Below are positions 3,012-31,219 of a stretch of 64,000 nucleotides of DNA, piece by piece. Where the stretch lies: positions 42,316 to 106,315 of the forward strand of contig JABSOI010000019.1 of NCBI GenBank assembly GCA_013216015.1, written 5' to 3'. The notes beneath the pieces were generated by a model. It was given only the letters and a program-made list of their open reading frames with translations, made no database searches and was not told the origin of the DNA. Made by a program: the position numbers and the translations under genes. This stretch comes from Alteromonadaceae bacterium. GTDB taxonomy: Bacteria > Pseudomonadota > Gammaproteobacteria > Enterobacterales > Alteromonadaceae. Positions within the stretch are counted from its first letter, which is position 1; the number at the start of each line of letters is the position of its first letter.

Positions 3012-5030
3012 ATGACCATAGCATACCCGCATTTAATGGAACCACTGGATTTAGGTTTTAGAATAATCAAAAATCGTAGCTTAATGGGCTCTATGCATAC
3101 CAGTTTAGAAGAAGCGCCTAATGGCTTTGTTAGAATGGCTGCTTATTATGCAGAGCGTGCAGCTGGTGGTATTGGTATTATAGTAACAGGTGGGTTTGCT
3201 CCAAATATTGAAGGTGGAGGGATGCCAAATGCAACGATGATCGCTACAGAGGATGATATCGAAAATCACCGACTGATCACTGATGCCGTTCATAAAGAAG
3301 ATGGGGTTATCTGTATGCAGATTTTGCATACGGGTCGTTATGCTTATCACCCTCAGTTAGTTAGTTGCTCTCCTGTGCAGGCACCAATAAATCAATTTGT
3401 ACCAAAAGAGCTTGATGAGGAAGGCATTGAAAAACAAATTCAAGACTTTGTCAGTTGTGCCATAAATGCTCAAAGTGCAGGGTATGACGGTGTCGAAATA
3501 ATGGGATCGGAAGGTTATTTTATTAATCAGTTTATTTGTAAACGCACTAATAAAAGAACTGATAGATGGGGTGGAAGTTATCAAAACCGTATCCGGTTGG
3601 CGTTAGAAATTGTTCGTCGTACCCGTGAAGCGGTTGGAGAAAAGTTCATCCTCATTTTTAGATTATCAATGCTGGATCTTGTTGAAGACGGAAGTACCTG
3701 GGAAGAAGTGGTTGAACTTGCAAAAGGTATAGAAAAAGTTGGAGCAACTATAATAAACACGGGTATAGGTTGGCATGAAGCACGTGTACCGACAATTTCG
3801 ACTAGTGTACCAAGAGGCGCATTTGTTGAAATAACTAAGCGGTTGAAAAGTGAAATTAATATTCCGTTATGTACAACAAATCGTATTAATACGCCTGAAG
3901 TTGCTGAAGATATATTGTCTGAAGGTAATGCTGATATTATTTCAATGGCCCGTCCTCTGTTGGCAGATCCACAATTTATGGTTAAAGCGGCTGCGAATAA
4001 AGCCGATGAAATCAATACGTGTATTGGGTGTAATCAGGCATGTTTAGATCATATTTTTGAAATGAAGCTGGCTTCTTGTTTGGTTAACCCGTTGGCCTGT
4101 CATGAAACTGAAATAATTATAAATCAAGCTATAAGTATTAAGAAAATAGCTGTTGTTGGTGCTGGTCCTGCAGGTCTTGCTGCGGCAACTACCGCAGCAA
4201 AAAGAGGTCATGATGTGACTTTATTTGAAGCTGATAACAAAATTGGCGGACAATTCAATATTGCTAAACAAGTGCCGGGTAAAGAAGAATTTGGGGAAAC
4301 AATCAGATATTTCAACAAACAGATAGAGCTTACGGGTGTTAAATTAAAACTTAATACTAAAGCTAACCTTGAAGATTTAACTAATTTTGACGAAGTGCTT
4401 CTTGCTACAGGTATTAGTCCTCGTTTACCTGATATTCCTGGTGTTGAACATGAAAAAGTAATGACTTATCTAGATGTATTACGAGACAAAAAACCTGTTG
4501 GTAAACGTGTGGCAATTATTGGTGCCGGCGGTATTGGTTTTGATGTTGGTGAATTTCTAACTCATCAGGGTAAGTTAACTTCTCTGGATAAAGCGGCCTA
4601 CATGAAAGAGTGGGGCGTTGATCTGAACTACTCAACACCGGGTGGTTTAATATCACCGAAAGTTGAGCCTTCACCGCGTGAAGTGTTTCTAATTCAGAGA
4701 AAATCATCAAAAGTGGGTGATGGTTTAGGAAAAAGTACAGGTTGGATCCACCGCACGGTATTAAAAAATAAAGGCGTAAAAATGATAAAAAGTGCGCAAT
4801 ATACCAAAATTGATAATGATGGTTTACACCTGTTAGTCGATGGTCAAGAGCATCTTTTATCGGTTGATAATATCATTATTTGTGCGGGTCAAAACTCTCA
4901 ACGTGAATTACAAGCCCAACTTGAATCTGCTAAAGTTAAAGTAACCTTAATTGGTGGTGCAGACGTTGCTGCGGAACTTGATGCTAAACGAGCGATTAAG
5001 CAAGGAACGATAGTAGCTGCAGCTATTTAA
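3012..5030 (+). CDS. fadH: 2,4-dienoyl-CoA reductase (NADPH), Old-Yellow-Enzyme TIM barrel plus FAD/NAD(P) Rossmann domains
   Basis: 672 aa, the same length as E. coli FadH. N-terminal LDLGF..KNR.LMGSMHT. Internal GxGxxG pairs (VVGAGPAGL, IIGAGGIG). 4Fe-4S Cys cluster CIGCNQAC. Confidence 0.9.
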   Translation: MTIAYPHLMEPLDLGFRIIKNRSLMGSMHTSLEEAPNGFVRMAAYYAERAAGGIGIIVTGGFAPNIEGGGMPNATMIATEDDIENHRLITDAVHKEDGVICMQILHTGRYAYHPQLVSCSPVQAPINQFVPKELDEEGIEKQIQDFVSCAINAQSAGYDGVEIMGSEGYFINQFICKRTNKRTDRWGGSYQNRIRLALEIVRRTREAVGEKFILIFRLSMLDLVEDGSTWEEVVELAKGIEKVGATIINTGIGWHEARVPTISTSVPRGAFVEITKRLKSEINIPLCTTNRINTPEVAEDILSEGNADIISMARPLLADPQFMVKAAANKADEINTCIGCNQACLDHIFEMKLASCLVNPLACHETEIIINQAISIKKIAVVGAGPAGLAAATTAAKRGHDVTLFEADNKIGGQFNIAKQVPGKEEFGETIRYFNKQIELTGVKLKLNTKANLEDLTNFDEVLLATGISPRLPDIPGVEHEKVMTYLDVLRDKKPVGKRVAIIGAGGIGFDVGEFLTHQGKLTSLDKAAYMKEWGVDLNYSTPGGLISPKVEPSPREVFLIQRKSSKVGDGLGKSTGWIHRTVLKNKGVKMIKSAQYTKIDNDGLHLLVDGQEHLLSVDNIIICAGQNSQRELQAQLESAKVKVTLIGGADVAAELDAKRAIKQGTIVAAAI

Positions 5031-5065
5031 TATTCGTTTGGATAGGGATGGCACTACTTAAACAC

Positions 5066-5110
5066 CCTGGAAATGCTGAAGCTTGCATTTCCAGGTGGTT
5101 TGGGTATATT
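5066..5110 (+). terminator. Rho-independent terminator after fadH
   Basis: Hairpin ccctggaaatgc-N8-gcatttccagg followed by a T-rich tract. Confidence 0.5.
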
Positions 5111-5167
5111 TTGGACATACAATTGGTCTATTACCTTGCTTTGCTTTAAAATAATTATTTAAGTTTT

Positions 5168-5992
5168 TTAACTTACCAGATAACGACGAAAACCAACCAG
5201 TAATAATGCAGTTAAAGCAATAAATGAAAGACTACCTCCATGTCCGCTACTATGGCTACGTCTATCTTCTTCTATATAATCATAATTTGCACTTTCTAAC
5301 GGTAAGGCAAATAATGTGTTGGTATCATCGCTGCTGATGGTGGCAACGGGATCGTTATAACCCACTTCGTATAAGTCAATTAACACATCATAATAATCAC
5401 TGCCATAACCATCATCTAACGTTGTGAGCACTTCATAGTTATCAGTGCTGCTGTCTGAATAAATGATGAAATCATCGGTGGTATAATAATGTAACCATTC
5501 GCCACCATTTTTACTTAGATATAACTCTGCATAAACCTCAACAAATTCAGAGCCGTAATAGTTATAAACATCAGCATCGAAGGTAACACTAAATTTTTGG
5601 TAGAAGCCGTCAAAGTCATTATCATAAAGTAAATGAGAATGGGCATCATAGATACTGAATTCGTGATGGCCAATTCTCGCAGCACGTGTAACGCTGGAAC
5701 CTGAGGTGGCACTAACAGTATTAGCTTGTTGTTGTTGTTTTAAAAGAAGAATTTCAGATCGAGTTTTTCCGGTTGCTTTACCCAATATTTGATCACTCAG
5801 GACGATGTTTTTACTCTGTTCAACATAGTTTTTTCGAACTTGTTCGGTAATTTCTTTTTGTGGTGCGCCAAAAGAAGTCGTTGTTTGAGTTTCATTTGCG
5901 CTAGCTGTGTTTATGCCCAAAACAGCAAAGCTTAAACATAATATTAATGTTTTGTGTGTGGCTAATTTATTTTCAAGTTTACTTTTGTTCAT
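5168..5992 (-). CDS. Secreted acidic D/Y-rich protein with GlyGly-CTERM-type sorting tail
   Basis: N-terminal signal peptide. C-terminus SSGHGGSLSFIALTALLLVGFRRYLVS (GG + TM + basic residues), typical of rhombosortase substrates. Confidence 0.6.
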   Translation of the reverse strand: MNKSKLENKLATHKTLILCLSFAVLGINTASANETQTTTSFGAPQKEITEQVRKNYVEQSKNIVLSDQILGKATGKTRSEILLLKQQQQANTVSATSGSSVTRAARIGHHEFSIYDAHSHLLYDNDFDGFYQKFSVTFDADVYNYYGSEFVEVYAELYLSKNGGEWLHYYTTDDFIIYSDSSTDNYEVLTTLDDGYGSDYYDVLIDLYEVGYNDPVATISSDDTNTLFALPLESANYDYIEEDRRSHSSGHGGSLSFIALTALLLVGFRRYLVS

Positions 5993-6269
5993 AACTTTAT
6001 CCCTAATAATTATCTATGCAGTTGTTGGCAATCATTAAAGCTTAATTTAACTGAACAAAGGCTGAACGTGATGTAAGGCTTTGTAGTGGAAATGTAAAAA
6101 GGTGTAAATTCACTAGATGGGTGCTCGTACTAATAGATTTAATCCTGCTATTCGAATAACAGATCCCTTTTTTCTGTTCAACAAATACCGTTCAGCAAAG
6201 GTTCAGTAAAGCAGTTGTATTCTGGTTCTATATCAAAACGAGTTAGATGTAGAAATACAGTTTCAATTT

Positions 6270-6827
6270 TTGGAGAATATTATGAAAGTACTTATTAATA
6301 CCATTTTAGCGTTAGTTATTTATTCGATATCAGCTAGTGCAAATGCTGCTCATCAGCAAAATTCAGTTTTTTATAAAAAAGCAGATGTTATAAAAGCCAC
6401 GCCAATTTATAAGAGAGTAACTGTTAAGCGCCCTGTGTATGGTTGTCAACACAACTTATCATCACGTCATTATCATCATAAAAATGCATTGGCAACCGTT
6501 TTAGGTGCAACTATAGGTGGTGTTATTGGTCATAAAATATTTAAAAAATCGCGATTAAAACATGTTGGTACTATTGCTGGCGCCGTTGTTGGTGGTGCTA
6601 TTGGTCATGATATCGGTACAAGACATCGTACTACTAGTCATAGAACCACTAGTCATAGAACCTCTCATCATAATCATCACACAAGTTGCGTATCTGAAAC
6701 AGAAGTGATAAAAAAATTAATGGGATATCGTGTTACTTATCGGTATCAGGGTGAATTGTTTACTACACGTACAAAACAGCACCCTGGAAAACGAATCAAC
6801 ATAAAAATTCAAGTTGAAGCAATATAG
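6270..6827 (+). CDS. Glycine-zipper (2TM/Rick_17kDa-like) outer-membrane/lipoprotein-like protein with His-rich TSHRT repeats
   Basis: Signal peptide. GATIGGVIGH and GTIAGAVVGGAIGH glycine zippers. HRTTSHRTTSHRTSHHNHH repeat. Confidence 0.5.
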   Translation: MENIMKVLINTILALVIYSISASANAAHQQNSVFYKKADVIKATPIYKRVTVKRPVYGCQHNLSSRHYHHKNALATVLGATIGGVIGHKIFKKSRLKHVGTIAGAVVGGAIGHDIGTRHRTTSHRTTSHRTSHHNHHTSCVSETEVIKKLMGYRVTYRYQGELFTTRTKQHPGKRINIKIQVEAI

Positions 6828-15297: not shown

Positions 15298-16089
15298 ATG
15301 AAAAATAAAGAAAAAATAGCATTGTTTATAGACGCAGATAATGCACCTGCCTCCAAAATAGATATCATATTATATGAATTAGCATGATATTTTGTCGTTA
15401 ATATTCGTATAGCTTATGGTAATTGGAAAAACCCATGCATTAAGCCTTGGGAAGATGTTCTTCATGACTTTGCTATCCAACCTATTCAGCAATTTGACCT
15501 AACTAAAGGTAAAAATGCTACCGATATAGCTTTAGTGATTGATGCTATGGACATTCTCTATACCAAAGATGTTGATACTATATGTCTTGTTTCCTCTGAT
15601 TGTGATTTTACTCCCCTAGTAACACGCGCTCTTGCCGATGGAAAGTTTGTAATTGGCTTTGGTGAGCGAAAAGCGCCATCAGCCTTCGTGAATAGCTGTT
15701 CAACGTTTCTCTATTTAGATGAGATTGAAACAGAAAAAAAAATAGTTAATAAAAAAGAGGCAAGTATTAAGTGTGATACAAAATTAATAAATATGTTACG
15801 CCAAGCAGTCGAATCAGCGGAAGAAGATGATGGATGGGCAGCACTTGGATCTGTAGGTACTCATATTGCTAACCATGCTTCATTTGACCCCAGAAACTAT
15901 GGCTTTAAGAAATTAAGTGATTTATTTACGGCTATTGATTTGTTTGAGTTAAAACGAAGTAACTCAAAAATCACCTGGGTAAGGGATAGAAAAAAGGCAA
16001 AGCAAAAGGAGGTATCTATACCCATCACCATTCAAAATGCAGGTTTTGATTCGTTTAAAAAACATATTTACTGCGTTGCTGAATCTTAA
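15298..16089 (+). pseudogene. NYN (LabA-like) ribonuclease domain plus OST-HTH/LOTUS domain protein, interrupted by in-frame TGA at 15385-15387
   Basis: MKNKEKIALFIDADNAPASKIDIILYELA*YFVVNIRIAYGNWKN…KGKNATDIALVIDAMDIL…LVSSDCDFTPLV. C-terminal LOTUS-like segment. Same frame before and after the stop. Confidence 0.6.
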
Positions 16090-16136
16090 ATAAGAATAAC
16101 TTATCCGGCGAATCAGCGTCTTGTAACTATGCTTTT

Positions 16137-16177
16137 TAATTCACCTCAAATTCCCGCATTTTGAAAGGTAACGGGTA
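16137..16177. repeat. 5'-truncated fragment of MITE R3 (right TIR end)
   Basis: aattcacctcaaattcccgcat…acgggta matches the right end of the full R3 copies. Confidence 0.6.
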
Positions 16178-19343: not shown

Positions 19344-22124
19344 TTAAATTTTAAAAAACGAAGTTTCTTTTTCCAGCAAGTTGGCTAAGCGAGCAAGTTT
19401 CACACTTGATTGCGCGACATTTTCTGTTGCTTGACTAGTTTCTGCAACACCTGAATTCAATGTTTTAACATTTTCCAGTATTTCTTCAACGATGGCTGAT
19501 TGTGCTTTAGCAGAAAGGGCTATTTTAGAACTTAATTCACTAATGCTGATAATTTTATTGGTGATAACCCTATTCAGTTCAGTCGCTTCTTTTGCATGTA
19601 CCTGTACGGTATTTGCTTGAGTAACACTACTGGCCATTACTTCTACCGATGAATTAGCCCCCTGGATAATGGTATTGATAGTATGATCAATTTCTTTGGT
19701 GCAATCCTGTGTTCGCAGGGCGATCTGTCGAACTTCATCGGCGACCACCGAAAACCCCCGACCTTGTTCGCCGGCTCTTGCTGCTTCAATGGCGGCATTG
19801 AGTGCTAATAAATTAGTTTGTTCTGCAATACCTTTAATGACATTAAGCACATTAACCACTTGTCTGAAATCATTTCTTACTCTTTGTACACTTTGCTCAG
19901 ATTGCTGAATTTGCTCAGTCATCGCTAAAATCGAGTTGTAGGTATGATCTAATTTTTCAGATCCGTCATTTACTATATTTTGAATTTCCGCGATAGCAGT
20001 TGAAGTATCGTTTGTATTTATTGTCACTTCATTGACCGTTACTCCCATTCCCTGCATAGCGGTAGTCAGTTGTTCTGATATTGATTGCTGCTGGTTAACT
20101 GTGTTCCTTGTTTGGGTGGTGATCGTAGAAAGTTCTTTAGACGTTGCTGTTTGCTGCAAGACAATGGCAGAAATATTTTTTACCATTTTAGCTGAATTAC
20201 CTATCATTTGCATAATGGCTTGTTGTAATTGTCCTACTTCGTTATTGGAAGTTTTTTCAATGGTAAAAGTCAGCTCACCATTAGCAACACGTTGCGCAAC
20301 ACCTGCTATTTCTTTAATTGGCGTTGTAATTCTTTTTGCGAACCAGTAGCCGATAGAAGTAACAACAACGACAATCACCAGCATAACAATACTCATAAAA
20401 GAGGTATTGTCACGAATTGAGGCGAAGGCTTCATGTTCATCTATTTCTGATAATATCGCCCAGTTGAATGAACCAAACGCTATGTGATCAAACGAAGATA
20501 ATACTGGATTGCCGTTATAGTCAATAATGATATCAGTACCATTTTCGTTGGCGTGAGCGCGTTTCGCAGCAGTGGTATTAACGCCATTGCCTGCTATAGA
20601 ACCAGCAAAGCTTGCTTTTACAGAATGGCCTTGTGGATCAATAAATGAATTACTTCGCATTTTCAAGTCTTCACCTATAAGGTAGCTATTACCAGTGTCA
20701 CCCATTCCTTCTCTCATACTCATTATTGTCTGAATGCCTTCAAGTGGTAACTGCAATGCAACATAAAGAATTGGTTGGCCATCGGCACCTAACAGTGGTT
20801 GAGCAATAAATGCTGCTGGATCATTATTGCTGGGAGAATATGGGGCAAAATCAACAATTCCATATTGTTTACTTTGGCTGACTTCCTTAATTAAGTTCCC
20901 TAAATTAGAGGACGAGTATTTGCCCTTGAATATATTGCTCTTAAAGTCATTTTTTTTAGCTACCGTATAGAAAATGTGACCATCAGGATTGATAAGGAAT
21001 AAATCGTAATAACCGTATTTCTCAATATAACTTTTATAGAATTCTTCATTGTTTAATGTTTTAGGATTAAAGGCTTGTGCAACATCTATTTCTGAGATAA
21101 TGGCCCAGCGAACCCCACTTCCCAGATTAATATAACCCCAGCTGCTGACGACAGGATTATTATTATAACCCTGAATCACCGCAGTATTTTTATCTCCCTG
21201 AAGTGCTTTTAGTACAGCGGTTGTTTCAATTTTATTGTTTTTGGCAAAAGAAGCTTTTACCAAATAGTCTGTAGGATTAAGATAAGAATCTGAACGCATT
21301 AATTTATCTTGTCCGACAACGTAAGATTCTCCGGTAACTCCCATCCCCGTACGGTTACTTAAAATATTGTTTACCTTCTCCAGTGATTGTTTAAAAGCAA
21401 TGTAGCCAAGTCGTTTACCTTTATCATCAATGACGGCTTTGACGGTAAAAGCTGCCGGATTATTATTACTGCGAGGGTAGGGGAGAAAATCGGCGAAATG
21501 AATATCAGATGACGATGACTTTTTCGCGAGAGTAAATGCCTGATAAAAAGAACTGCCAGTTAAATCATTTATTACGTTTTTACCAAGGTCATTTCTTCGT
21601 TTAACCGAGTAAATAATGTTGCCGTTATTATTTAATATAAAAAAATCAGACCAGCCAAAATGTTTTAACAATGACTTATACGATTTGTCATGTTTATTCA
21701 GTTTAGTCCACCAGCGTTTTTGTTTATGTTTTGAAAAGTAATGAGTTAACTCTTTAATCGCAAGATGAAGATAGGTTTGTGAGGCGAGCTGATCTAATTG
21801 AGCATTATTGTTTTCAATATACTCGGTTAACTGTGCTTTTTTCAGATCGTTTATGGCGGATAATTTTGAAAAGGCTTGCTGCTGCATGGTATCGGCAATA
21901 TTGATCAATACCCCCATATCACTTTGACGTTCATTAAAATATGTTTTCAGGGCTTGTTTTTTTATTTGATTGATTGTAGTTAATTGATTGTAAACCTTTG
22001 ACGTTAGATCATTAGAGTTATTAGATATTGAAATAATACTGACAATAATGGCTGGCATTAACCCAATAAGGATAAATAAAAGGGTGAATTTTGCCTTTAA
22101 ACTTAAGTTTGTAAGGTCAGTCAC
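19344..22124 (-). CDS. Methyl-accepting chemotaxis protein with large double periplasmic sensor (dCache-like) region
   Basis: 926 aa. TM, ~550-aa periplasmic region with two similar halves, a second TM, HAMP, and the MCP signalling domain ([28 protein letters not shown]). Confidence 0.85.
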
Positions 22125-22210: not shown

Positions 22211-22367
22211 TACCCGTGGTCATTCAAGATGCGGGAATTTGAGGTGAATTTGAAAGTTTATCTAAAAGGCGCTTGATTGAGCAATAGCGGGCTATTGGGA
22301 TTGAAAGCAACGTAGTAGATAATCTTTTAAAACGCTTCAAAACCTGCATTTTGAATGATTACGGGTA
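22211..22367. mobile_element. MITE R3, 157 bp, 27-bp TIRs (TACCCGTRRTCATTCAAR…), flanked by TA/TA
   Basis: Same element at 31007-31163, with a fragment at 16137-16177. TA duplication at both ends. Confidence 0.7.
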
Positions 22368-22640: not shown

Positions 22641-23459
22641 TCAATAAGAGATAGGTAATCCATTAGCCCAACCCTTAGCCATACCTATTACGGCGCTATT
22701 GAAGTCTGTATTTTTACTGGCCTGATTTCTTTGTTGGCAATAAATAGCATTATTATTAAAAATTGATTTTGCCAGTTGACGACCTCCCATAATAACGCCG
22801 GTTGTTTTAGCTAGTCTTAGTTCAGTAAAACGGTTCAGTGCCTGATTAATATCTCCACCACTTTCTTTTAAACAATTAGCCAAATGCCATGCATCTTCCA
22901 GCGCTTGACACGCACCTTGACCAGATGTTGGTAACGGCGCATGGGCGGCATCGCCAATGAGCAATACATTATTTTTATGCCAACATTGAATAGGATCATG
23001 GTCGTGGACATATATTTTGTTAATACTCGATAATGGCGAATTGTTGATGATAGTGGTTATAGGATCGGGCCAATGTTTAAAACGTTTATTTAATTCATTT
23101 TTGTATTGGTCAGGGTTTTTTTTACTAATTTTGTCGGCAAGCACACCACCAGCCCAATAGGCTTTTTTAGCGGATATTGGTACGATACCAAAACGCTCTC
23201 CGGTCCCCCAATAATCTGAAACACAAAGATCAGAAAATAGTCGTTCATTGCTTTCAAATATGCCGACCCAATTAATGAAGCCTTGATAAATAGGTTTGTT
23301 GTCATTGTTTACATATTGCCGAGTGATTGAATTCATTCGTCCATCAGCACCAATAACCAGCTCAGCAGACAATTGCTTGCCATTGTCAAAGTTAATGATT
23401 GTTTCTTTATGTTTTCTAGTTTCTATTGCGACAATCACTTTCACCACCCAATAAAGCAA
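22641..23459 (-). pseudogene. Fragment of FAD-dependent aromatic monooxygenase (UbiH/salicylate-hydroxylase family); N-terminal Rossmann part missing
   Basis: GADGRMNSITR and GDAAHAPLPTSGQGACQALEDAWHLA motifs present. No N-terminal GxGxxG. Confidence 0.5.
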
Positions 23460-23823
23460 ACTCAGGAGGGATGCGCATAAGTCCCGGATTACGAAAGGTG
23501 AAACCTTCTTCAGACTTAACTACTTTAACTGAGGCTGACTGGCTATATTCGGCATGCACTAAGGTATTAATTAGTGCTTCACGCAAGGCTTGATGTATTA
23601 AGGTATCATCTTGGCGAATATTTTTTTTTATTGAAAAAGGGACTTTAATATCAGCTTCTAACTTGCGGATGATTTTTAAATAGAAATCAAAAATATTGCC
23701 TGACCAAGCGCCATCGGGGATTATTCTGTCAAGCCAGCGAATATTCTTATCATTACTTTTTTCTTGATAATCAATCATAAAATTTGGAAGTACATCTGTA
23801 ATATTGTTGTACTCACCAAACAT
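23416..23823 (-). pseudogene. Fragment resembling ATP-binding (HATPase_c_4-type) domain of putative transcriptional regulators
   Basis: LREALINTLVHAEYSQ motif. The ORF is short and overlaps the monooxygenase fragment. Confidence 0.35.
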
Positions 23824-29513: not shown

Positions 29514-29924
29514 ATGGCTAAAAAGTGTTTAGCTTCCATACTGAAATTGCAATGGTGGTTCCATACATTCCTGACCAGTTTATTTTTTATCGCTGTAACT
29601 TTCTTTTTTCTCTTTGTTATAGAAGATTACCTTTATGAAAAACAGTTGATCGATATTAGCAATATTGTTGCCCAAAATGAGTCGATAAAGGGGTTGCCAG
29701 CGCATATTCAAATAGTTACAACAAGTGAAATACCACAAGCCTGGATCACTCAACTAGCACAAGCAGCATTAAATGAAGCGATAGAAATAGATAATCACAA
29801 GGGTAATACCATTCATCTTATTCGCTCACAATTTAGCGACAATAAAGAAGAGTTTGTACTGGCGTTAGATACGGGTAAAACAAATTCTGTCTGGGACATA
29901 TCAGACAAGCATTATGTTAATTGA
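29514..29924 (+). CDS. Membrane-anchored hypothetical protein, translationally coupled to downstream RR
   Basis: One strong TM (FLTSLFFIAVTFFFLFVI). The stop overlaps the downstream ATG by 11 nt. Confidence 0.4.
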   Translation: MAKKCLASILKLQWWFHTFLTSLFFIAVTFFFLFVIEDYLYEKQLIDISNIVAQNESIKGLPAHIQIVTTSEIPQAWITQLAQAALNEAIEIDNHKGNTIHLIRSQFSDNKEEFVLALDTGKTNSVWDISDKHYVN

Positions 29925-30303
29925 TGATGACGAATCAATTCTGGCTTTAATAAAAAGACGATTGTCAGGATACGGTTATCAAGTAACAGAATTCAGTAAT
30001 TGCAGTGATGCATTAATTGCCTTTGCTGAGGCGCCTGACAACTTTGATCTGGTGATCTCTGACTTTAATATGCCAGAGATGACAGGCATAGAATTTACAG
30101 AAGCAGTACAAGCGATAGTTGTTGATCAGCCGGTAATTATTATAACGGCGACACCGGAGCAAGTGATTATTGATCCGGATCAGGATCAGGTGGTTATCAG
30201 TCATGTAATATCTAAACCAATAGCATTTAGCGAGCTGCAAACAGCAATTTTAGACTTATTTCCTCAGACCCAACCTCAGGCTAAGCCTAAACCTAAACTT
30301 TAG
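29914..30303 (+). CDS. Single-domain (CheY-like) response regulator
   Basis: DDDE acidic pocket, phospho-Asp in LVISDFNMPEMTG, then T and K (ISKP). No output domain. Confidence 0.7.
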   Translation: MLIDDDESILALIKRRLSGYGYQVTEFSNCSDALIAFAEAPDNFDLVISDFNMPEMTGIEFTEAVQAIVVDQPVIIITATPEQVIIDPDQDQVVISHVISKPIAFSELQTAILDLFPQTQPQAKPKPKL

Positions 30304-30358
30304 CCTTTACCTTAGCCTCTACCTTAGCTTTTACCTCAGTTTTACCTCAGAATAAGGC

Positions 30359-31219
30359 TTAAGTTGAAAGGGGCAGGCTGTCACAAAACCGAGAGCCTAT
30401 TCCCGACACAGTCTCCAGATATTTACCAGCAACGCCTAACTTTTTTCTTAATTTATAAATTTGGTTGTCGATGGCGCGATCGGTAATATAGTAGTTATCC
30501 CCTTTACTGTGAGAAATAATAGCATCCCGCGTAAATACGCGATTGGGCGATGACATTAATAAATATAGAATATCAAATTCCATTTTATGTAGTTTAACCG
30601 GCTCATCAAATAGCCTGACTTGTCGGGAAGGTACATCAATAAAAACACCGAGCAGTGAAAGTTGTTCGCTTGCGAGGGGGTCGGATAAACCCGATTGACG
30701 TCTTAAACTTGCTTTTATTCGGGCCACAAGCAGGCGGGGATTAAATGGTTTGGCAATGTAGTCGTCGGCATAACTTGCGAGTCCCTTTTCCATATCACTG
30801 ATATCTGCCTGATCAGTCAACATAATGATCAGTGGCATACTATTTCGGTGTTGTTGTAACAGTCGTTCGCAAAATTGATAGCCGTTCATACCCGGTAATT
30901 GAATATCAAGAACAATTAAATCAGGCTTTTCGTTGTTGCAATGTAACAATGCTGCTTCAGCGCTAATGACGCTCGCTACTGAGTAGTTTTCTTTTTGCAG
31001 GATATATACCCGTAATCATTCAAAATGCAGGTTTTGAAGCGTTTTAAAAGATTATCTACTACGTTGCTTTCAATCCCAATAGCCCGCTATTGCTCAATCA
31101 AGCGCCTTTTAGATAAACTTTCAAATTCACCTCAAATTCCCGCATCTTGAATGACCACGGGTATAAAGCACCATTTCACGGATATGCTCGTCATCTTCAA
31201 CTATTAATATTTTATTCAT
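30359..31219 (-). pseudogene. OmpR-family response regulator gene interrupted after codon 18 by MITE R3
   Basis: N-terminal piece 31166-31219 (MNKILIVEDDEHIREMVL). Then the 159-bp insertion. Then YILQKENYSVASV…PDLIVLDIQLPGMNG…winged helix. The inserted frame has a stop at 31016-31018. Confidence 0.7.
31007..31163. mobile_element. MITE R3 copy inserted in RR gene; TA target duplication (31005-06 / 31164-65)
   Basis: Ends are TACCCGT…ACGGGTA. Joining the flanks restores …REMVLYILQK…. Confidence 0.75.

Follow-up and report, generated by a model that had tools for sequence, protein, structure and literature searches.

The Correia/NEMIS repeats of Neisseria include a 155-bp class that has inverted repeats of about 25 nt and 5'-TA-3' termini, duplicates a TA, is closed in its reading frames, and is transcribed as a long stem-loop. 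These repeats are mostly intergenic, often lie just upstream of genes, occasionally disrupt a gene in particular strains, and are without a known parent. The RPE of Rickettsia and the in-frame ERIC/YPAL elements are also palindromic; they lie inside protein-coding genes, have a length that is a multiple of three, and contribute open frames of their own, which are translated in the host protein. The RUP elements of Streptococcus pneumoniae and other IS630-derived MITEs are small and TIR-bounded, insert at TA with duplication of the target, and are presumed to be mobilised in trans by an IS630 enzyme (PMC2229807). RUP was assigned from the similarity of its inverted repeats to IS630-Spn1, and it is the exception in this respect, as most bacterial MITEs have no known similarity to the ends of insertion sequences (Delihas review, PMC2229807).

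The locus described here compares with each of these systems in a different way. It lies in a 64-kb stretch of the genome of a marine Alteromonadaceae bacterium, and we refer to this whole analysed stretch as the window. We are highly confident that a MITE, accompanied by a TA duplication, disrupts an OmpR/PhoB-type response-regulator gene in this genome. A natural empty site, found in a close relative of the interrupted allele, allowed the boundaries of the insertion to be read directly. How the element was mobilised, how old the insertion is, and what it meant for a pathway that had already lost its kinase can be stated with different degrees of assurance, and each is considered below.

Results

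A response-regulator gene split by a 157-bp element

An OmpR-type response-regulator gene on the minus strand is split after codon 18 by a 157-bp palindromic element. Along the minus strand the order is an ATG at 31219, 18 codons, TA, the element (from 31163 to 31007), TA, and the remainder of the gene, which ends with a stop at 30359:

31166-31219, minus strand: 5' fragment of the response-regulator gene, ATG and codons 1-18 (MNKILIVEDDEHIREMVL), placed by N-terminal alignment with orthologues
31164-31165, no strand: target-site duplication TA, upstream copy in gene orientation; a single TA at the empty site
31007-31163, minus strand: the MITE, 157 bp, with ends TACCCGT...ACGGGTA and TA on both sides; absent from the empty-site contig L001
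31127-31129, minus strand: first in-frame stop in the MITE, which limits the product of the native ATG to 30 aa
31016-31018, minus strand: last of seven in-frame stops (TGA), from sequence and frame translation
31005-31006, no strand: target-site duplication TA, second copy; in the healed gene, the first two bases of codon 19 (TAT, Tyr)
30359-31004, minus strand: 3' part of the response-regulator gene, from the remainder of codon 19 to codon 233 and the stop, from the ORF list and the healed translation

When 159 bp (the element and one TA) were deleted in silico, a 702-nt ORF of 233 aa was restored, reading ...REMVL-YILQKENY... across the junction. The healed protein has the N-terminal receiver and C-terminal winged helix of an OmpR/PhoB-type regulator. 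Response_reg (PF00072, E 9e-29) covers residues 4-116 and profile positions 1-111 of 111, a complete receiver, and Trans_reg_C (PF00486, E 2e-18) covers residues 153-223. Codons 1-18, which include the Mg2+-binding Asp pair of the acidic pocket (D9 and D10), are cut off from the remainder of the gene, and the phospho-acceptor Asp (in LIVLDIQLPG) stays in the part downstream of the insertion. The residual ORF (30359-30949, minus strand) encodes 196 aa from a TTG start at 30947-30949, or 176 aa from an alternative ATG 20 codons further on. Public annotation of an Alteromonadaceae MAG presents this remnant as a 196- or 176-aa "response regulator transcription factor".

The empty site was found through the healed protein. 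Among public proteins it was 100% identical over its full length to a 233-aa protein (P0001) from the Logan assembly of SRR7632671, which is encoded by an uninterrupted gene on a 4,097-bp contig (L001). This contig aligns with window positions 33296-31162 (2,135 bp) at 99.5% identity and with 31006-29041 at 99.9% (100% over the 1,907 bp of 31006-29100), and the two blocks overlap by 4 bases. At the junction, L001 reads GTGCTT-TA-TATCCTGC and the window reads GTGCTT-TA-(157 bp)-TA-TATCCTGC, so that exactly 159 bp are missing. The single TA and the 159-bp gap thus demonstrate an insertion, give its exact size, and show the 2-bp TA duplication directly. We also considered a TATA duplication around a 153-bp element, which fits the flanks of all copies; it was excluded because it predicts a difference of 157 bp and not 159 bp.

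The alignment with orthologues of Colwellia and Thalassotalea (63-79% identity) is ungapped at the junction, where Y19, I20, and L21 are invariant, and the uninterrupted gene is therefore the ancestral state. The insertion itself was present in nine independent metagenome assemblies, namely the window and eight from ENA (L002, L003, L004, L076-L079, and L081). Two further Logan contigs (L080 and L082) end 23 bp inside the element, for a total of 11 occupied contigs including the window. Contig ends inside an element are expected when a repeat breaks a de Bruijn assembly. A metagenome scan with the junction-proximal 19-mer CGTGAAATGGTGCTTTATA, intended to count empty and filled alleles, returned four unrelated genes only.

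The initial annotation had proposed a MITE with a TA duplication in an OmpR-family response-regulator gene, and the empty site bears this out. It had placed the ORF at 30359-30949, the missing 18 codons at 31166-31219, and the element ends and flanking TAs correctly, and the joined flanks do restore REMVL-YILQKENY in a 702-nt ORF with complete domains. Its comparison of choice was with the intact gene in relatives, which L001 and the gapless orthologues now provide. The stop that it had noted at 31016-31018 is real and is the last of seven. The insertion had also been called in-frame; 159 bp do preserve the frame arithmetically, but with seven stops this has no functional meaning.

A TA-flanked repeat family

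All six frames of the MITE are closed by stops, and its 157 bp are non-coding. The inverted-repeat arms, counted with the flanking TA, occupy 31005-31031 and 31139-31165 (27 nt, imperfect, 85% complementary). Folded as RNA, the whole element forms a single long hairpin (-76 kcal/mol, z = -12.7). The window contains the 24-nt terminus two times (0 expected from shuffles) and, besides the regulator copy, two more copies of the element:

22211-22367, plus strand: MITE copy 2, 157 bp, 100% identical, TA-flanked, intergenic
16019-16177, minus strand: MITE copy 3, older and diverged (74% identity), 159 bp, TA-flanked, overlapping the 3' end of ORF 15535-16089

A near-identical 157-bp copy lies at an unrelated TA site with different flanks on L043, a 2.2-kb scaffold that was binned as Flavobacteriaceae and is possibly mis-binned. 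TA is found on both sides in four of four copies of this 157-159-bp subfamily (three in the window and that of L043). The regulator copy, the copy at 22 kb, and the L043 copy are at least 98.7% identical, and the 157-bp subfamily is young. A methyl-accepting chemotaxis protein gene starts at 22124, and the copy at 22211-22367 lies 87 bp before this start. An empty site for this copy was also sought; the sole other contig, L083 from Logan, breaks about 22 bp inside the element, so the site is occupied there too.

The element thus combines everything by which a bacterial MITE is recognised: it is small and non-coding, has inverted repeats, duplicates TA in a filled-versus-empty comparison, and occurs in dispersed copies. 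An Rfam scan gave no relevant match. A plant miRNA hairpin model scored below threshold (28.5 bits vs a gathering score of 119), which is generic hairpin similarity, and Rfam showed neither covariance nor sequence similarity to Correia, ERIC, or other named repeat families.

Two local details of these copies deserve mention. The ORF at 15535-16089 encodes an N-terminally truncated NYN domain (profile positions 83-145 of 145) and OST-HTH and runs into the diverged MITE at 16019-16177, which provides its final ~23 codons and its stop. Position 31061 is T in the regulator copy of the window, as in the 22-kb and L043 copies, and C in eight of eight other fully assembled occupied contigs; it is the sole difference between the window and L002 across 6.5 kb. 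The T could be due to repeat-driven consensus polishing or to gene conversion between copies.

An exact-pattern scan with the inverted-repeat consensus, applied to one genome per species, identified at least 64 loci, about 30 of them in CP182631.1, the complete genome of Colwellia sp. RE-S-Sl-9. Among the matches listed, the hosts are Colwellia, Pseudocolwellia, Thalassotalea, a Colwelliaceae isolate, and several Methylophagaceae/Piscirickettsiaceae genomes, and the elements fall into size classes of about 157, 260, 307-310, and 350-375 bp, with none longer than about 375 bp. Family members have 35-60 bp of terminal sequence in common, and the termini are conserved across the at least 64 loci. 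Among the matches listed, TA directly precedes TACCCGT at 61 of 65 ends, against a background of 9% (p = 8e-59). These elements are a multi-copy MITE family that is TIR-bounded, TA-duplicating, and non-coding. The Methylophagaceae/Piscirickettsiaceae sequences that carry the family terminal sequence (L009, L031, L036, and L061) include a complete chromosome, OZ252593.1. The occurrence of family termini outside Colwelliaceae suggests horizontal spread of the element or of a mobilising enzyme. A literature search found nothing linking Colwellia with MITEs, the sample accessions gave no relevant publication, and the family (157-375 bp, TA-flanked, in several genera and in Methylophagaceae) appears to be undescribed in the literature searched.

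Just one of the 18 complete elements examined is truly intragenic, and this is the regulator copy. Random TA sites, by comparison, are in long open frames in about 76% of cases (p = 5e-10). That the family is nearly all intergenic implies that genic insertions are normally purged. The copies on L025 and L065 were considered as further genic insertions, as healing gave long open frames, yet in each case the real start codon follows the junction, and they are thus promoter-proximal and not intragenic. These copies (L025 1245-1505 and L065 6505-6765) are placed 15-24 codons' worth before start codons. Together with the copy at 22211-22367, these start-proximal elements recall the way in which Correia elements sit near promoters; effects on expression are putative. 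L023 has a cluster of family members at 4364-6458, in which several elements follow one another head to tail and surround a 342-aa gene; pneumococcal repeats are reported to cluster in a similar way.

Mobilisation of the element

Transposition of the IS630/Tc1-mariner type leaves a strict 2-bp TA duplication as its signature. A parent of this type would be a longer segment bounded by the inverted repeats TACCCGTTAYCATTCAAGATGCAGG. Neither the at least 64 loci nor the window, the viral contigs, and the plasmids yielded a transposase-bearing parent with MITE ends; the scan of viral contigs with the inverted-repeat pattern and the plasmid BLAST with the MITE gave no matches. The sole IS-like spacing among the matches listed, an inverted-repeat pair of 1,728 bp on L023, proved to be separate short elements around the ordinary 342-aa gene and not an IS. 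The sole 1.1-kb repeat among the matches listed is an IS630-family element of Colwellia sp. RE-S-Sl-9 (L013 6426-7537 and L024 6392-7505, 99% identical). It has an HTH and a DDE region with ...PYSPELNPIE..., the motif from which the family was assigned, and it is frameshifted. This element was rejected as the parent, as its ends read TA followed by TACCATTCC... and TA followed by TACCAATTAG..., and only TA followed by TACC is common to it and the MITE. A tblastn search of the 64-kb window with a Colwellia IS630-type transposase also gave no matches.

Since no parent was found, we infer IS630 mobilisation from the TA duplication, and on this basis we lean towards an IS630-family transposase as the enzyme that mobilises the MITE. 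A serious, if tentative, alternative is that the MITE is not an IS630 derivative: it would either be moved by a transposase of a different family or be a TA-flanked palindromic orphan, as are the Correia and ERIC repeats, which have no known parent transposase. The strict 2-bp TA duplication speaks against this alternative, and the absence of a parent holds among the matches listed, where a rare parent could easily be missed. Nevertheless, all of the at least 64 family loci are at most 375 bp and none is a parent, the IS630-family element in the MITE-rich Colwellia genome has different ends, and similarity to insertion-sequence ends has not been found for most bacterial MITEs, with RUP excepted (PMC2229807). 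The derivation from IS630/Tc1-mariner elements given in the initial annotation therefore retains the TA duplication and the inverted repeats as its grounds, with no parent among the sequences searched.

Haplotypes and the history of the insertion

The occupied allele is present on at least four haplotypes that are up to about 1% apart. The occupied contig L004, for example, is about 1% divergent and carries SNPs at distances of 81 and 123 bp from the ends of the element. The empty contig L001 differs from the occupied L077 at 1 of 3,284 sites and from the occupied L004 at 30 of 3,229. Residue 223 can be polarised by the orthologues (Y is ancestral), and all four combinations of MITE state and residue exist in a four-gamete test. 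This pattern calls for recombination, for two insertions at one and the same TA, or for precise excision in the lineage of L001. Sites 31861 and 31804 also show all four combinations, and as they are only 57 bp apart, recombination or chimeric consensus contigs must be at work.

These haplotype data do not agree with a simple history of one recent insertion in a clonal population. "Recent," the term used in the initial annotation, is thus only partly right, given the number and divergence of the occupied haplotypes and their conflict with the polarised SNP. We favour an older polymorphism that would have been shuffled by recombination. It is also conceivable, although unlikely, that the polymorphism records a loss. 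The insertion would then be old and have been present in the ancestor of all sampled strains, and L001 would be a revertant in which precise excision of the MITE and one TA restored the frame. L001 is indeed nested among occupied haplotypes, being far closer to L077 than to L004, and the ancestral Y223 is found on occupied alleles only (L004 and L081), with the derived S223 on the empty allele. A near-perfect hairpin between direct TA repeats is, moreover, a structure prone to slippage-type deletion. However, a repeat of 2 bp lends itself very poorly to precise deletion, short-range recombination or chimeric consensus alone can put an ancestral empty allele on the common background, and a restored gene would bring no obvious benefit with the kinase gone. 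If precise excision were true, a Colwelliaceae MITE would be able to leave a coding sequence without a footprint and could be a reversible insertional switch. An older polymorphism shuffled by recombination is the reading that we carry forward.

State of the signalling pathway

At the Colwellia locus, the orthologous regulator (76-79% identical) is convergent to a hybrid kinase of 576-584 aa with HisKA, HATPase_c, and REC. The corresponding part of the window holds two kinase fragments:

29914-30303, plus strand: receiver tail of a hybrid histidine kinase, 129-aa ORF, with 61% identity to residues 461-574 of the 576-aa kinase of L071
29514-29924, plus strand: first 133 residues of another kinase, a classical histidine kinase of ~420 aa; 136-aa ORF, with homologues of 412-436 aa

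Homology to the Colwellia hybrid kinase starts at window position 29896. The 136-aa ORF was considered as the N-terminus of the orthologous hybrid kinase, to which it has no similarity; it is the N-terminus of a different kinase, whose homologues match over the first 133 residues only and have HisKA and HATPase_c further on. A single deletion has taken both catalytic cores, with a junction that joins the 136-aa ORF to the receiver tail (29514-30303). The kinase-core deletion is present in every sampled strain, including L001 with its empty site.

Variation among the strains gives a similar picture of the regulator. The interrupted gene has no synonymous and five non-synonymous variants, among them D10G and N59K at residues that are invariant in orthologues. 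The neighbouring LytTR regulator has nine synonymous and five non-synonymous variants (one-sided Fisher p = 0.022 vs the interrupted regulator, on few sites), and when the two non-synonymous variants of the kinase tail are added to those of the regulator, the comparison gives p = 0.007, again on few sites. Y223 is conserved in seven of seven orthologues and is Ser both in the window and in the "intact" L001. As the kinase core is lost in all strains, and as the regulator and the kinase tail have only amino-acid-changing variants, the regulator was already an orphan under relaxed selection, and the insertion struck a decaying gene. The initial annotation had stated that the insertion inactivated a signalling gene. 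The gene is disrupted, but the impact was overstated, as every strain had lost the core of the cognate kinase beforehand.

Other fragments are found in the neighbourhood. Between the stop of the regulator and the tail of the kinase, at 30240-30358, is a degenerate short tandem repeat (GGCTAAGGTAAA-like, minus strand) in which strain L078 has two SNPs. The 129-aa ORF takes its PQ/KP-rich end from this repeat. The 84-aa ORF at 29232-29486 matches the first 42 profile positions of a Beta-lactamase/serine-hydrolase (E 6.5e-4, below the curated cutoff) and is probably another gene fragment; the corresponding position in Colwellia has a Peptidase_S41 gene. Two further fragments lie at 22641-23823: one covers profile positions 144-320 of the 349 of FAD_binding_3, and the other, 135 aa long, is weakly AbiGii-like. 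Decayed genes seem to be numerous in the window.

Consequences for the regulator

The sequence of events begins with a non-autonomous, TIR-bounded 157-bp element that integrated at the TA in codon 19 and duplicated it. Recognition of the inverted repeats probably falls to a transposase whose gene lies elsewhere and which would carry out cut-and-paste integration at TA; because of the 2-bp duplication, an IS630-family enzyme is the most likely candidate. From the native start, a 30-aa peptide only would be produced. A product of the downstream TTG or ATG would have neither the first strand and first helix of the receiver nor the D9/D10 pocket and, without that strand and helix, should not be phosphorylated normally. 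The MITE would also add the -76 kcal/mol hairpin to the mRNA. With seven stops in the read-through frame, the gene is disrupted, and we infer a loss of function of the regulator. The insertion was tolerated because the pathway had already died.

It is very improbable that the interrupted gene still works, with a promoter in the MITE and the downstream TTG or ATG giving a truncated regulator of altered, possibly constitutive activity. A weak promoter-like site (9/12 matches) does lie inside the MITE at 31079-31051 and is directed toward the gene, but two such sites were found in the element against 2.0 expected from shuffles. Gene callers do annotate 196- and 176-aa products; the truncated product, however, is without the first strand, helix, and acidic pocket (Response_reg profile positions 1-35), and all five coding variants are non-synonymous, with D10G and N59K at invariant residues. 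We give practically no weight to the idea that an ancestral intervening sequence or an error of assembly accounts for the 159 bp, or that the 18 upstream codons come from another gene: a natural empty site exists in L001, all orthologues are without the insert and align through the junction, a 100% identical sequence lies elsewhere in the window, and the occupied site was assembled independently in nine samples. The two findings by which the initial annotation would have been overturned, an ancestral intron-like region and 18 codons of a different gene, are thus both contradicted by the empty site and the gapless orthologues.

Discussion

The locus offers a clean natural filled/empty pair for a bacterial MITE in a coding sequence, and this pair fixes both the 157-bp boundaries and the 2-bp TA duplication. 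It also anchors a large Colwelliaceae repeat family that is undescribed in the literature searched. As an event, it is a well-documented yet ordinary gene disruption and would be no surprise to specialists in mobile elements. For annotation, the locus advises caution: the "response regulator transcription factor" is a 3' remnant, and the regulator, the kinase, and several neighbours are fragments. The locus also shows how one pseudogenisation leads to the next: with the kinase lost, an element that selection otherwise removes from genes could settle safely in the orphan regulator.

The comparison with described systems can now be made at the level of the gene and of the element. The OmpR/PhoB regulator and hybrid kinase locus of Colwellia has the same receiver and winged-helix domains as the healed gene, and its kinase is complete, whereas in the source lineage the kinase consists of a receiver tail joined to the N-terminus of another kinase, and the regulator is split. 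Like RPE and the in-frame ERIC/YPAL elements, the MITE is palindromic, lies inside a protein-coding gene, and interrupts it by a multiple of three. Those elements bring translated open frames. The MITE is closed in every one of its six frames, with seven stops in that of the host gene, and it is thus not an RPE-type translated insert. With RUP and other IS630-derived MITEs it has in common its small size, its TIR boundaries, its insertion at and duplication of TA, and a presumed mobilisation in trans. It differs from RUP in having no matching insertion sequence among the matches listed and has no sequence relationship to RUP-type elements.

The likeness to Correia/NEMIS extends further. The two are similar in size (155 vs 157 bp), in the length of the inverted repeats, in the TA termini and TA duplication, in the closed frames, and in the long stem-loop of the transcript. 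Both are mostly intergenic and often just upstream of genes, both occasionally disrupt a gene in particular strains, and neither has a known parent. They differ in host lineage (Colwelliaceae/Alteromonadaceae for the MITE) and in the sequence of the inverted repeats, and Rfam shows no sequence relationship between them. An IHF site, promoter activity, and RNase III processing are further points of comparison that Correia/NEMIS provides for an element known here from its sequence alone. In function and structure, the 157-bp MITE is closest to the 155-bp class of Correia/NEMIS.
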